Notes: generated from the letters alone by a model not told the origin. A stretch of DNA of 64,000 nt from a virus (IMGVR_UViG_3300037067_024922:28766-92765), one strand, 5' to 3'; counted from the stretch's first letter, positions 53,537 to 59,288 are shown. Made by a program: numbers and translations.

Positions 53537-53737
53537 ATGAGAAAGCCGAATCATCATAATCGTTACAGAGAAATCAGACCTGTCGGAAATAAAGGGGTGT
53601 GGCAATATATCGAAAGATCAAGAAAAACAGACCGAGTTTTGAGAGTATTATTGACGACGCATGATGGATATGATGCTATTCAGGCGCAGCGGAAGGGATG
53701 GGAAGAAGGAGAAAAAGAGTTGGGACATAAAGTTTGA
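53537..53737 (+). CDS. Early hypothetical protein
   Basis: AAAGGAG RBS. Confidence 0.6.
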   Translation: MRKPNHHNRYREIRPVGNKGVWQYIERSRKTDRVLRVLLTTHDGYDAIQAQRKGWEEGEKELGHKV

Positions 53738-53760
53738 TATTAACCGAAAGGAGAATGATC

Positions 53761-54396
53761 ATGACAAAAGAACAAGCACGCGCATTAAAGGCAGGACAGG
53801 AAGTTTTGGTGAAGGTCAACGACAAATGGGTTCTGGGATTTAGAAATTTCAATTCCAAATGTAAACCGAACTCATTACCGATGATCGTCAAATATGATGC
53901 GGCGGGATCAGTTAACTCGTTAAAGACCATCGATGTCGGGTATGCGAATATTCGCTCCCTGAGCGAAAAGCCTTTCATTGAAGAAGAGGAGCGGGCAGTG
54001 GTGGAAAGGGAAAAGACTTTTTCCCGGCAGTACTTTCTGGAGTGGCTTCGTAAGGCAAAGATAGAATACGAAGCAGTAATTGTCACATTCCAGGCCGACA
54101 TTGCGAAAGATCCGGAATATGCAATCAGATGGAGCAGCGCCAATGTGATCATAGCCAAATGGAATTATGTCCATTGCGAAATGATTCTCAGGGGCATTGA
54201 GAAAAACCTCGAAAAACTTTGGCCTGTCCTTGAGGAAGTCCGGAATGATGCAATCAGGATACAACTCCAGTGGTCATCTTCAAATTCGACCTGCAAATGG
54301 ACAAATGCTGTGGAAGAGGCCAATGCCCTTGCAAGAACGAGATGGATCCAAGGATCTGATTTTTATCTCAGGAGCCTCAAGAAATTCGATATCTGA
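53761..54396 (+). CDS. Early hypothetical protein
   Basis: AAAGGAG RBS; 211 aa. Confidence 0.65.
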   Translation: MTKEQARALKAGQEVLVKVNDKWVLGFRNFNSKCKPNSLPMIVKYDAAGSVNSLKTIDVGYANIRSLSEKPFIEEEERAVVEREKTFSRQYFLEWLRKAKIEYEAVIVTFQADIAKDPEYAIRWSSANVIIAKWNYVHCEMILRGIEKNLEKLWPVLEEVRNDAIRIQLQWSSSNSTCKWTNAVEEANALARTRWIQGSDFYLRSLKKFDI

Positions 54397-54400
54397 TCAA

Positions 54401-54464
54401 GGCCGAAACCGAATGATTGAAAGGAGCATTCGGTCTGCTGGTTGTGCCAGCACTGATGATGGCC
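54401..54464 (+). ncRNA. Hammerhead ribozyme, type II
   Basis: GGCC-GAAA-CCGAATG[ATTGAAAGGAG]CATTCGG-TC-TGCTGG[TTGTG]CCAGCA-CTGATGA-T-GGCC: full core, three stems, GUC triplet, cleavage after 54435; intergenic. Confidence 0.92.
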
Positions 54465-54485
54465 AAATAAAATTGAAGGGAGAAT

Positions 54486-54596
54486 ATGATCATGGAAGTT
54501 TTATTTGCATGTATATTGGCGGCGATACTGATTCAAACAACCATCTTTTTAAGAGTGGCAACAATAGGCCACAGATCAAAGGAGATTATAATATGA
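54486..54596 (+). CDS. 36-aa hydrophobic peptide, absent from the ORF track
   Basis: AAGGGAG RBS; MIMEVLFACILAAILIQTTIFLRVATIGHRSKEIII. Confidence 0.5.
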   Translation: MIMEVLFACILAAILIQTTIFLRVATIGHRSKEIII

Positions 54597-54769
54597 TCAA
54601 GTGGAAGACAAATGATAAGGTTAAGGTGGTCCTGTTAGGCGATAGTCATTTTGGTGAGATAGGCACCATTGATGATGTTATGGTGCTTGGTATCTGTGTC
54701 AAATTCGATGACGATTCCAGACAGATTTACAAGAAAAATGGGGAGTTGATTAAGCAGCAAAACAACTAA
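54593..54769 (+). CDS. Small KOW/SH3-like protein
   Basis: AAAGGAG RBS; DKVKV...GEIGTI...VKFDD. Confidence 0.55.
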   Translation: MIKWKTNDKVKVVLLGDSHFGEIGTIDDVMVLGICVKFDDDSRQIYKKNGELIKQQNN

Positions 54770-54790
54770 AATGAAAAGGAGGAAGTGAAG

Positions 54791-55666
54791 ATGACAGAGC
54801 GTAAAAAGAGTATTAAGGAAAAAGCGGTATTGGTGAAGCTGAATTTCAGGAATGGCGTAGGGTTTACAGTCACTGATAACCCCGTGACTGAAGAAGTGGC
54901 GGTGAATCACAAGACTCCGAAAGCAGGGCGGTACGTAAAGACCTTATTTAAGAGAGAAAATCTCCAGGCAATTTTTGATGCTGAGAATATTGCCAAGTTA
55001 GCTCACGCGAAATATACGTTGCCTTGGCTCGATTCGGGAATAAGGATTCTCCCTGTCGCGATGTTCGACAAATACAATGAGGCCTTAAGTAAGGCGGTGA
55101 CAGCGTATGATTCTGCTGTGGCGGTGTTTGCTGACCGATATGATGAAATCATGGCCGAGAACAAGGAGAGGTTGAGAGAAATGTTCAATAAGAGTGATTA
55201 TCCTCCAGCCTCTTATGTCAAAACTGGTTTCAAACTGTCGGTCAGTTATTTCCCAATTCTCGACAAGGATGATTTTAGAATTGATGCATCAGAGGCGATA
55301 ATCGAAGGCTTTAAAGATCAATACGTGAAGGATATGAAGGCGTATGAGATGAACGCCACGACTGATGTTGCCAAAAGGCTTGGGGATTCGATGGCTCGAT
55401 TTGTCACCAAGTTGAGCACTGCAGACAAGAAAATCACCGACAATGCTCTCTTAAAACTTTCTGAGCTCCTCAAAGATCTCAAGGGGCTGAACGTGATGGG
55501 TGACAAGAACATCACGGCGGCAATCAAAGAGGTCGAAATGAATTTCTCCAAAGAGACAGCAGAGGCATTCAATACCAATACTGAATACCGCGCTAAGAAG
55601 AAGGCGGCAGCTGTCGCCATTGTCCGTAGTTTGGAAACGAATTTTCCAAGAGCGTTAGAGTTTTAA
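54791..55666 (+). CDS. DUF3150-like phage protein
   Basis: AVLVKL, GRYVKTL, YTLPWLDSGIRILP, MFNKSDYP, DFRI. Confidence 0.65.
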   Translation: MTERKKSIKEKAVLVKLNFRNGVGFTVTDNPVTEEVAVNHKTPKAGRYVKTLFKRENLQAIFDAENIAKLAHAKYTLPWLDSGIRILPVAMFDKYNEALSKAVTAYDSAVAVFADRYDEIMAENKERLREMFNKSDYPPASYVKTGFKLSVSYFPILDKDDFRIDASEAIIEGFKDQYVKDMKAYEMNATTDVAKRLGDSMARFVTKLSTADKKITDNALLKLSELLKDLKGLNVMGDKNITAAIKEVEMNFSKETAEAFNTNTEYRAKKKAAAVAIVRSLETNFPRALEF

Positions 55667-55667
55667 C

Positions 55668-55722
55668 CCACTGATGAGCTGATGAAACTTCAGCGAAATC
55701 CCCGTAGGAGGCGGGGATATGG
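55668..55722 (+). ncRNA. Hammerhead ribozyme, type I with short stem I
   Basis: CCA-CTGATGA-GCTGA[TGAAACT]TCAGC-GAAA-TCCCCG[TAGGAGG]CGGGGA-TA-TGG; AUA triplet, cleavage after 55719; starts 1 nt after a stop codon. Confidence 0.85.
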
Positions 55723-55841
55723 ACTATAATATAGAAGGAGGTGATCTATATGTCGTGGGGTTAAGAGCCTCTGAGATGTGATCAAAAATGAAATTACAAA
55801 ATGGTCGTATTGAATGTGATTCTTAATCAAAAGGAGGCAAT

Positions 55842-55979
55842 ATGGGCCAAGCAAAACGCAACAGAGAGTCTGGGGCAACAGTGAAGAAGAAGTTGAGATT
55901 CCTTCATTTGCTGAGGCTGATTACAAAGAAATATAATGAACATCAAATTCTGGCATTTGCCAAAAGGAGGAAACTATGA
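55842..55979 (+). CDS. 45-aa basic peptide, absent from the ORF track
   Basis: AAGGAGG RBS; ATGA coupling to the next gene. Confidence 0.5.
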   Translation: MGQAKRNRESGATVKKKLRFLHLLRLITKKYNEHQILAFAKRRKL

Positions 55980-56350
55980 GGATCGTGCAAAGATTTGGTA
56001 GTTACAACCAGCGTCGGTATGGCCGTCCATGGATTGCCAAAATTACTTCTTGGCCTGTTGGTGGAAAAGCTGAGGTTGTTTGGGGCTCATATCTTGGATC
56101 TGACAATGGTGGAGAAGTTGAAATTGAAGCCAATCCTGGAGACATCATAAGGACGGGCCAAAAAGATGGAAGAGGGAAAGGTACTTCTGCCGACTGGTAT
56201 ATTGTCAATGAAGATGGCTCTTTGAAATCAACCACTGCAGCAGAAGCAAAATCACATTGGGAATCCTACCACATGGTAAAAATAAATCCTTTGGAGAAAA
56301 TTTCAATGGAGGAGTTGATTGCAGAAATCGAGAGGAGGAAAATATCATGA
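55976..56350 (+). CDS. Hypothetical phage protein
   Basis: AAGGAGG RBS; YNQRRYGRPWIAKI...GQKDGRG. Confidence 0.7.
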   Translation: MRIVQRFGSYNQRRYGRPWIAKITSWPVGGKAEVVWGSYLGSDNGGEVEIEANPGDIIRTGQKDGRGKGTSADWYIVNEDGSLKSTTAAEAKSHWESYHMVKINPLEKISMEELIAEIERRKIS

Positions 56351-57901
56351 AGGGAATCGAGGAAATGATCTTCGCAGTAAAGAGCGGCTTCGCATACTTC
56401 TATTGCGAGAGCCAAGAAATCAACAAGACTGTAGTAGATATCACAAAAGGCCTGACCGAGTATTTCGATGCCAACCAGAATGGGATCCAGTTCGCTGTCT
56501 CTACCTGGGATTTTGAAGAGACCACAGAGAAGGGAGAGAGCAAATACAACAGCCCTGATGAAATGCTTCTCAAGTTAGAAAATGTCCAAAATGGATTCGA
56601 TGAAGTTCCTCCAGGCACCGTCATCGTCGCCAAGAACTTCAATTGGTTCCTCAGTGATGATTACGGTAACTGTGATAAGTCAAAGACAAGCTGGCTTCTC
56701 AATAGGTCCGCAAAATTCTCAAGTGCCGCAACCCGTAAGATCCTTATCATTATTGGAAATGTTACCTTTGATAAGGCAATTCCTGAGGTGCTTAGAAGAG
56801 ATTTTGCCCATATCGAATTTGCATTGCCAGACGAGAAAGAGATCGAATCGGTTTACGATTTCATCGTTGAGCCCGCAAAGAAAAATCCAAAATTTGTGAC
56901 CCCCGACAGATAAAGAAAAGGCAAGAATTATCGCTGGAGCAAGAGGCTTGACAAGGTCCGAGATCATCAAGGTTTTCAGTTACAGTATCGTAAAGAATAA
57001 GGGTATTTTCAATCCAGCGACAGTCGAGGAACTCAGGGCGGAAGAGATTAACAATACTCCTGGGTTGAAAATTGGGATCTATGACAAGAGGTTGGAAGAC
57101 CTAAAAGGGTACGAGATTGCGAAAGAGATCGTCAGTGAATGGATTGATGATCCTGAAGCAAAAGGCATCATGCTTCTCGGACCTGCTGGAGTTGGAAAAA
57201 CTCATTTTTGTCAATCATTGGCCGGTCATTACAATCGTCTCATCATTGAACTTGAGTTTGCTCAGCTGATGGGCGACGGTCTTGTTGGACAGGCAGAGAA
57301 GGCAATGAAAAAGGCACTTGATGTGGTGGCTGCAAATGCCAACCCTGCTTCTCCCATTATCGTTTTTGTTGATGAGATTGAAAAGGGTTTAGCAGGGACA
57401 TCTGGTGCAGGTGGACAGGCTGGCGCCAATGATGGCGGAACGACAGATCGATCCAATGCTCAGTTTCTTAAATTCCTTTCAGATGCAAGGCCAAAAGGAA
57501 TCTATTTCGTTGCATCATGTAACGATATAGAGAAACTTCCTGCAGCCTATGTCCGGGCAGAACGCTGGGACACGGCACCAATCTTTGTTGATCTGCCAGA
57601 TAAGGCAGAACAGATGGCAATCCTGGCTCACTACCAGGAGCTGTATGAGGTCACTGCTCAGCCCTATGATATGAAGGGTTGGACAGGGGCAGAGATCAAA
57701 GCATGGTGTAAGTTAGCCAGGAAGAAGATAGACAAAGGCAAAAAGGCAAATGATGCGGACGAATTGATTGTCCCCATCTCCAGGACGATGGAGAAAGAAA
57801 TTGGTTATCTTCGGTCTTGGAAGAATGGCAGGACGGTGCCTGCCTCAAGAAAAATTGTCGTTGATCAAGCCAATTCTGGCAGGCAACTTGACATGAAGTA
57901 A
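56347..57901 (+). CDS. Ycf46-like AAA+ ATPase (~517 aa), split by one extra C in the C5 run at 56900-56904
   Basis: Removing one C reads ...FVTPTDKEKARIIAGARGLTRSE... into the 56948 ORF; Walker A GPAGVGKT, Walker B FVDEIEK, NDIEKLP..VRAERWD. Confidence 0.8.
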
Positions 57902-59078: not shown

Positions 59079-59288
59079 ATGGACATCATGAACCTCAAAA
59101 TCCTTGAAGATGGTACGATTACAGTCAAGACAAGCGAGATCAGCGATGGCAATCATATGTCGGCAGATGCCCTAATGGCAAATCTTGATTCCCTGATGGG
59201 CGGTCATGTCGACATCGAACCAAACACTGATGAGATGCAAAAGGCTCATGCCCATGCCCACAAGCACGGGCTGGCTCATGCACATTAA
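59079..59288 (+). CDS. DUF2997-like protein with His-rich tail
   Basis: LKILEDGTITVKT...LMGG; ends HAHAHKHGLAHAH. Confidence 0.6.
   Translation: MDIMNLKILEDGTITVKTSEISDGNHMSADALMANLDSLMGGHVDIEPNTDEMQKAHAHAHKHGLAHAH

Follow-up and report, generated by a model that had tools for sequence, protein, structure and literature searches.

Introduction

Perreault et al. (2011, PLoS Comput Biol, PMC3088659) described prophages in which multiple hammerhead ribozymes flank a single gene or a short block of genes. They demonstrated in vitro cleavage at every site in three tandem arrangements, one of which was also cleaved in vivo, and proposed that such clusters process transcripts into operon- or gene-length mRNAs while considering spliced or circular products conceivable. 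Here, we analyzed an arrangement of this kind in an uncultured phage, within a 64,000-nt stretch (hereafter the window) of an IMG/VR virus record that is 92,765 bases long and is rated complete (IMGVR_UViG_3300037067_024922, bases 28766-92765). At positions 54,401-55,722 of the window, a type II hammerhead and a type I hammerhead bracket three open reading frames (ORFs), the last and longest of which encodes a 291-aa protein distantly related to DUF3150 (the DUF3150-like gene). Sequence comparison indicates that both elements are real hammerheads, and it is probable that together they cut a rightward early transcript into separate messages, which would serve mRNA processing and end protection.

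The bracket has much in common with the clusters of Perreault et al., in which several coding-strand hammerheads of differing permutation type separate phage genes whose identities are not constant. It too consists of at least two same-strand hammerheads bounding a short gene block, with two copies that are 1284 nt apart and three ORFs between them. It differs in belonging to an uncultured 92.8-kb phage, in having exactly two copies, and in being kept in relatives down to 45% protein identity, and a gene-specific association such as that of a small gene with a DUF3150-like gene was not emphasized for the earlier clusters. A first-pass annotation of the window had singled out the paired, gene-bracketing arrangement as unusual, a view that we abandon because the arrangement was already described in 2011 (PMC3088659) and because it recurs in IMG/VR. 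Our abundance check, which used one exact pattern for a type II flavor seen in relatives (GAUC/GAUC stem II), matched 114 IMG/VR contigs, and 24 of the 80 that were fetched have two to four copies that share a strand and are spaced 268-2166 nt apart. These are type II throughout, and no mixed type II/type I pair was seen in the set. Gene-bracketing hammerhead pairs are ordinary in phage DNA. The locus adds no new principle; its value lies in being a small natural system in which the function of phage hammerheads could be tested. The phage has two ribozymes and no more, placed around the same genes as in its relatives, and sister phages have extra or missing copies at orthologous junctions, which amounts to usable natural variation with which the effect of cleavage on message stability and protein output could be gauged, and which could settle whether circles form.

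The two elements can also be compared with described ribozyme families and with systems that make circular RNA. For this and all that follows, relatives' loci (designated by L-numbers) are metagenome loci fetched around homologs of the 291-aa protein; L014 and L005 are the same lineage, as are L015 and L008, and L011/L012 are counted together. The type II element shares with the Rfam family RF02276 the core (CUGAUGA, GAAA, and GUC) and the phage context, and a copy from one relative (L005 2906-2972) passes the RF02276 threshold at 44.4 bits. The window copy departs from the family by a loop I of only 3 nt, the lack of an evident pseudoknot to the 3' tail, and an extra U. The type I element shares with RAGATH-1 (RF03152)—a type I motif with a short stem I that occurs near genes associated with twister and hammerhead ribozymes—its topology, a stem I that does not exceed about 5 bp, a stem II hairpin that is likewise short, and a stem III that is long and GC-rich. 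RAGATH-1 is also the best Rfam match of a relative's copy (L008 1957-2049, 34.4 bits), all scores being below the cut-off of 56.3. The window copy differs by the absence of the 5' accessory hairpin, a 3-bp stem I, and an AUA triplet. In circular systems such as retrozymes, viroid-like RNAs, and the engineered, twister-flanked Tornado RNAs, two ribozymes likewise bound an RNA, and the ends fit RtcB or tRNA ligase. However, the ends in these systems re-form a ribozyme or a stem, whereas in the window the two hammerheads are of different permutations, the RNA ends share at most 2 bp, and no bridging helix stands out.

Identification of two hammerhead ribozymes

The invariant core of the hammerhead (C3 U4 G5 A6 N7 G8 A9, G12 A13 A14, A15.1-U16.1, and H17) is complete in both elements, each of which has CUGAUGA, GAAA, an A-U pair closing stem III, and a non-G nucleotide at the cleavage position (C54435 and A55719). 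Read from 5' to 3', the type II element consists of GGCC, GAAA, an 8-bp stem III hairpin, GUC, the cut site, a 7-bp stem I hairpin, CUGAUGA, a single U, and GGCC. This U (54460) is inserted after A9, between the core and stem II. The type I element consists of CCA, CUGAUGA, a 5-bp stem II hairpin, GAAA, an 8-bp stem III hairpin, AUA, the cut site, and UGG. The first-pass annotation had predicted a type II hammerhead cut at a GUC after 54435 and a type I hammerhead cut at an AUA after 55719, both on the coding strand and close behind stop codons. The two predictions hold to the base; the stop codon before the type II element ends at 54396, and that before the type I element at 55666.

These two elements stand out clearly from chance. 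A descriptor scan for all three hammerhead permutations, on both strands of the entire 92.8-kb genome, found exactly these two, with stem-pair totals of 16 and 19. In 300 composition-matched shuffled genomes, there were 73 minimal hits, only three of which had at least 16 stem pairs (about 0.01 per genome). The minimum free energy (MFE) structure of the type II copy is the hammerhead fold (z -3.5).

Rfam was of limited use. At gathering thresholds it identified nothing in the 64-kb window, and permissive scans returned only a sub-threshold type II match and no twister, pistol, hatchet, or HDV-like candidates. The Infernal search that had been suggested as a check was therefore negative for both elements at Rfam thresholds, but the type II copy, which scores a sub-threshold 25.9 bits with Rfam, reaches 55.6 bits (54399-54466, E ~1e-12) with a covariance model built from five type II copies of relatives, the window copy being left out.

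In the type II alignment of relatives, 100% of the pair cells are standard and 13 of the 17 pairs have changed on both sides, while in the type I alignment 92.5% of the cells are paired and compensatory changes are found in 13/17 pairs. None of 500 shuffles was as good, for either type. When the 3' partners were slid by one to three columns, pairing fell to 17-55% in both sets, and covariation is present in all three stems of each. On this comparative evidence, in which the relatives and not Rfam are decisive, both elements are real hammerheads.

Conservation in related phages

In the window and in close-clade loci, every hammerhead found is encoded on the coding strand and occupies an intergenic gap, immediately after a stop codon. 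The type I position is kept in all nine lineages with DNA (window included). The copy follows the DUF3150-like gene in the window, L001, L002, L003, L011/L012, L014, L015, and L016, and is separated from it by one extra small gene in L004. The short-stem AUA design of this copy is kept in L004 and L016 with compensatory changes. A type II copy lies upstream of the small gene in six of the nine lineages (window, L002, L011/L012, L015, L014, and L016), and there is none at this place in L001, where 127 nt are available, or in L003 (~480 nt). The order—type II, small gene(s), DUF3150-like gene, type I—is kept down to 45% protein identity (L016), and in L014 a second type II copy is found within the bracket. 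The survey of DUF3150-like loci in related phages that the first-pass annotation had recommended thus revealed ribozymes paired around homologous genes in six lineages.

Relatives are much richer in hammerheads, with five to seven copies within 6-8 kb; there are seven in ~8 kb in L014, and L015 has six in ~5.5 kb. Between one and three early-region genes are bounded by each copy, and the structural or helicase/primase genes adjoining this region contain none. In L015, type II and type I copies alternate strictly along the operon, a striking pattern that was dropped as a rule since it is broken by L014 and L012. Distant homologs of the 291-aa protein (at most 31% identity), in L013, L017, L018, and cyanophage MinM2, have no hammerheads beside them, which restricts the association to the close clade. 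Neither a peptide-pattern search of IMG/VR for relatives of the 291-aa gene nor a pattern for the window-type type I ribozyme gave a match there.

The stem III loop of the type I copy contains a Shine-Dalgarno (SD)-like AGGAG/GGAGG (55706-55710). GGAGG is found in this loop in most lineages (L001, L003, L004, L016, and L015 3730-3790), a copy in L014 (10883-10940) has the complementary CUCCU instead, and we found no consistent partner for either. An AUG that spans the type I cut site (55719-21) behind this loop was rejected as a start codon, because it arises automatically from AUA followed by UGG and is missing in copies with a GUC triplet. A 5-bp AUUCG/CGAAU hairpin that would hold the stop codon could form upstream of the type II copy, but it is not seen in relatives and was given no weight.

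Proposed function

From the fixed position of these conserved, covarying motifs at gene junctions, we infer cleavage in vivo and an effect on mRNA stability. Both hammerheads would be transcribed within one rightward early operon, in which there is no terminator-like site between or beside them, and each would fold once made, directly behind a stop codon, and then cleave itself. The polycistronic transcript would be severed at 54435/54436 and 55719/55720, giving three pieces. The inner piece, for which the predicted cut sites give the 1284 nt (54436-55719) calculated in the first-pass annotation, would be a three-ORF message whose 5' end is a 5'-OH at the base of a 7-bp hairpin (type II stem I) and whose 3' end has two hairpins (type I stems II and III) and a 2',3'-cyclic phosphate. 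The upstream fragment would end in the type II stem III hairpin. The downstream fragment, which contains a 45-aa gene and genes for an AAA+ ATPase, would have a 5'-OH end followed by a 31-nt leader, short and unstructured, in which there is a strong SD. The ends of such fragments are expected, from what is known of bacterial mRNA decay, to resist both 5'-end-dependent and 3'-exonucleolytic decay, so that cleavage would uncouple the fates of neighboring gene blocks. The likely purpose would be to free the stability and translation of each block from those of its neighbors, a naturally occurring "ribozyme insulation" that separates cistrons, as has been suggested for the hammerhead clusters of prophages.

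Several observations weigh against processing of this kind. RNAfold does not predict the 3-bp stem I of the type I copy, although Tabler et al. in 1994 reportedly found a 3-nt helix I sufficient for full hammerhead activity. The best Rfam match of this copy is the hammerhead part of RAGATH-1, at 15.3 bits against a cut-off of 56.3. RF00163 gives no match with it at E<=10, and the type I topology itself is complete. The RF02276 match of the type II copy (E 0.014 in a 1.6-kb search) falls short of the cut-off of 37. A 2019 review describes the role of self-cleaving ribozymes in bacteria and phages as largely elusive (PMC6765202), and Perreault et al. reported that the type II pseudoknot affects the rate more than 100-fold (PMC3088659). 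By inspection, loop I of the type II copy (UGU) has no complementarity to the tail AAAUAAAA and no pseudoknot is evident; loop I is 3-5 nt long in most relatives too, and L005 2906-2972 keeps a GCC/GGC match. With no evident pseudoknot and an extra U, type II cleavage at cellular Mg2+ may be slow. Finally, no intact or decayed hammerhead is found in the window after the AAA+ gene or after the gene ending at 59288, where relatives have one, which makes hammerheads dispensable at those junctions.

Alternative explanations

The variable occurrence of hammerheads at orthologous junctions among relatives raises an alternative that we consider unlikely, namely that their main action is on the DNA, or that they are selfish passengers. 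As repeated, conserved intergenic modules, they would be recombination joints at which gene cassettes are gained, lost, or swapped, and RNA cleavage would be neutral or secondary. Homing-endonuclease genes and a promoter-like motif adjoin some copies, and the two ribozymes of L011 (2530-2594 and 4313-4374) share a near-identical stem III. The most suggestive case is a chimera in L002 (1404-1491), in which the 5' portion of a type I copy passes, at the GAAA-stem III-UC that both have, into the 3' portion of a type II copy; two genes present in L011 are missing from L002, namely the AAA+ gene that separates the two cut sites and the GIY-YIG gene. However, L002 is a single 1.9-kb metagenome contig in which mis-assembly across a ~40-nt repeat is possible, and stem sequences differ between most copies within one genome. 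Moreover, compensatory changes maintain three stems around an intact catalytic core, which points to selection on the RNA fold and not on DNA identity alone. As to the chimera itself, the sequence that precedes the type I cut site in L002 has 94% identity to L011; beyond the site, L002 continues with the 3' half of the type II copy that follows the AAA+ gene in L011 and then with the gene that lies behind GIY-YIG in L011. The chimeric hammerhead scores 47.7 bits with the type II model. It is either a natural deletion by recombination between hammerheads or a mis-assembly.

The minimal architecture of both ribozymes, with no evident tertiary contacts, would also fit another reading. In this alternative, to which we give rather little credence, cleavage is regulated or deliberately slow, and down-tunes or times expression instead of processing the transcript constitutively, for example by inactivating read-through into the AAA+ block or by being gated by ribosomes that terminate on the abutting stop codons. 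Regulated cleavage was raised for phage variants by Perreault et al. (PMC3088659). Both ribozymes start 1-5 nt behind a stop codon, where a terminating ribosome would be expected to cover stem I or stem II. Furthermore, in the MFE fold of 55660-55760, CCCAC (55667-71) pairs with GUGGG (55755-59) in a competing helix that takes up C3 of the core. Against this, the GUGGG partner is transcribed 33 nt after the type I ribozyme is complete, pairing of this kind was not found in relatives (by inspection, not systematically), and no ligand-binding or switch element is apparent. The same helix in the MFE fold of 55660-55765 encloses a 7-bp AU hairpin, with the strong SD in the hairpin loop, ahead of the 4-codon mini-ORF at 55751-55765. 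If the type I ribozyme cleaves slowly, this helix may compete with its fold.

A composite proposal, which we regard as similarly doubtful, attaches meaning to the orientation of the bracket. The type II-upstream/type I-downstream order would have been selected because it leaves hairpins on both ends of the inner message, making the mRNA of the small gene and the DUF3150-like gene specially long-lived or circularized by RtcB; separately, hammerheads that share stem III would serve as joints for the deletion or exchange of cassettes, as in the L002 chimera.

That the 1284-nt RNA is joined end to end by a host RtcB-type ligase, giving a cleavage-resistant circular mRNA, was suggested in the first-pass annotation and seems to us very unlikely. 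It has attractions. RtcB is encoded by many bacteria and the 5'-OH and cyclic phosphate left by hammerheads suit it, most of the structure of both ribozymes stays on the inner fragment, and the type II-upstream/type I-downstream bracket is kept to 45% protein identity. The accompanying prediction that a ligated 55719-54436 junction would not rebuild an active hammerhead is sound, since stem I would be reduced to 2 bp and stem II would be mismatched. For circularization itself we found no positive evidence: the phage genome has no match to RtcB or to Rnl2-type (RNA_ligase) or T4 Rnl1-type (RNA_lig_T4_1) ligases, no helix joins the ends, and no ribozyme is re-formed across the junction. Engineered and natural ribozyme circles rely on ends held by a stem or by a re-formed ribozyme, as in retrozymes, viroids, and Tornado, whereas the two ribozymes here are of different permutations, so that their ends are not kept in contact in the manner of retrozymes or viroids. 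Duplexes between the 5' and 3' ends were no stronger than in shuffles in 7/7 brackets (fraction of shuffles at least as good, 0.10-0.72). The three ORFs each have their own stop codon, and hence a circle would bring no obvious translational gain, and Perreault et al. detected neither circular nor spliced products from comparable clusters (PMC3088659). Lastly, ribozymes at almost every junction in relatives, with an extra one inside the L014 bracket, fit segmentation of the transcript better than a single special excised unit.

That one or both motifs are catalytically dead relics, as the 3-bp stem I of type I, the extra U at the core/stem II junction of type II, and the Rfam scores under threshold might suggest, is highly improbable, because all the invariant core positions are intact in both and L004 and L016 keep the AUA short-stem design, with compensatory changes; a natural viroid hammerhead studied by De la Pena and Flores in 2001 is, moreover, said to tolerate an extra nucleotide between A9 and 10.1.

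Genes in and around the bracket

The coordinates of the ribozymes and of the surrounding ORFs are listed in Table 1.

Table 1. Ribozyme parts and ORFs at the bracketed locus, in window coordinates.
Feature	Position	Strand	Remarks
220-aa ORF	53734..54396	+	No family assignment; stop TGA 54394-96, 4 nt before type II
Type II hammerhead ribozyme	54401..54464	+	Predicted cut after C54435 (GUC)
Type II stem II	GGCC 54401-04 with GGCC 54461-64	+	
Type II GAAA	54405-08	+	
Type II stem III	54408-15 with 54427-34	+	8 bp
Type II stem I hairpin	54436-52	+	7 bp
Type II core CUGAUGA	54453-59	+	
36-aa hydrophobic ORF	54486..54596	+	No family match
58-aa small protein	54593..54769	+	47% identity to L001 product
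291-aa protein	54791..55666	+	Distant DUF3150 relative; stop TAA 55664-66
Type I hammerhead ribozyme	55668..55722	+	Predicted cut after A55719 (AUA)
Type I stem I	CCA 55668-70 with UGG 55720-22	+	Only 3 bp
Type I core CUGAUGA	55671-77	+	
Type I stem II hairpin	55678-94	+	5 bp
Type I GAAA	55695-98	+	
Type I stem III	55698-55718	+	8 bp
Downstream fragment	55720..55979	+	31-nt leader with strong SD; 4-codon mini-ORF 55751-55765; 45-aa gene 55842-55979

The three-ORF block that had been described between the ribozymes is present, but its gene labels fared unequally. Searches of Pfam and PHROGs gave no match for the 36-aa, 58-aa, or 291-aa ORF, and the designation of the second of the three as KOW-like finds no database support. 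The DUF3150-like label is supported indirectly. The 291-aa protein does not match Pfam DUF3150 (PF11348) even at E<=10, but three of its 18 homologs do (best E 1.7e-4), PF11348 is present in 29% of the members of its nearest Atlas cluster (score 0.97), and a "DUF3150 domain-containing protein" of cyanophage MinM2 matches it with 24.6% identity (E 1e-16). The stop codon of the 36-aa ORF overlaps the start of the 58-aa ORF (ATGA), which suggests translational coupling, and the 58-aa gene is kept directly upstream of the 291-aa gene in relatives. The upstream 220-aa ORF has no homolog in related loci.

In two relatives, a motif, AAATATCTTTT, directly follows a hammerhead (L014 10941-10970 and L011 4373-4400), and the L011 copy lies in front of the gene for a GIY-YIG endonuclease.

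The distant homologs of the DUF3150-like gene in L013, L017, L018, and L019 (cyanophage MinM2, OQ594354.1 45680-46552) lie in a conserved neighborhood, between a gene for a MoxR-type AAA ATPase and DUF2201/VWA genes. The partner in the clade of the window is instead a Ycf46-like AAA+ ATPase downstream, whose genes are preceded by the 45-aa gene. This ATPase is a single ORF of 516-522 aa in relatives and is split into two frames in the window (56347-57901), where the ORFs end at 56913 and restart at 56948. By tblastn, frame 1 (56347-57009) accounts for residues 1-222 and frame 2 (56795-57895) for residues 165-518, a split that could be a frameshift, an assembly error, or real.

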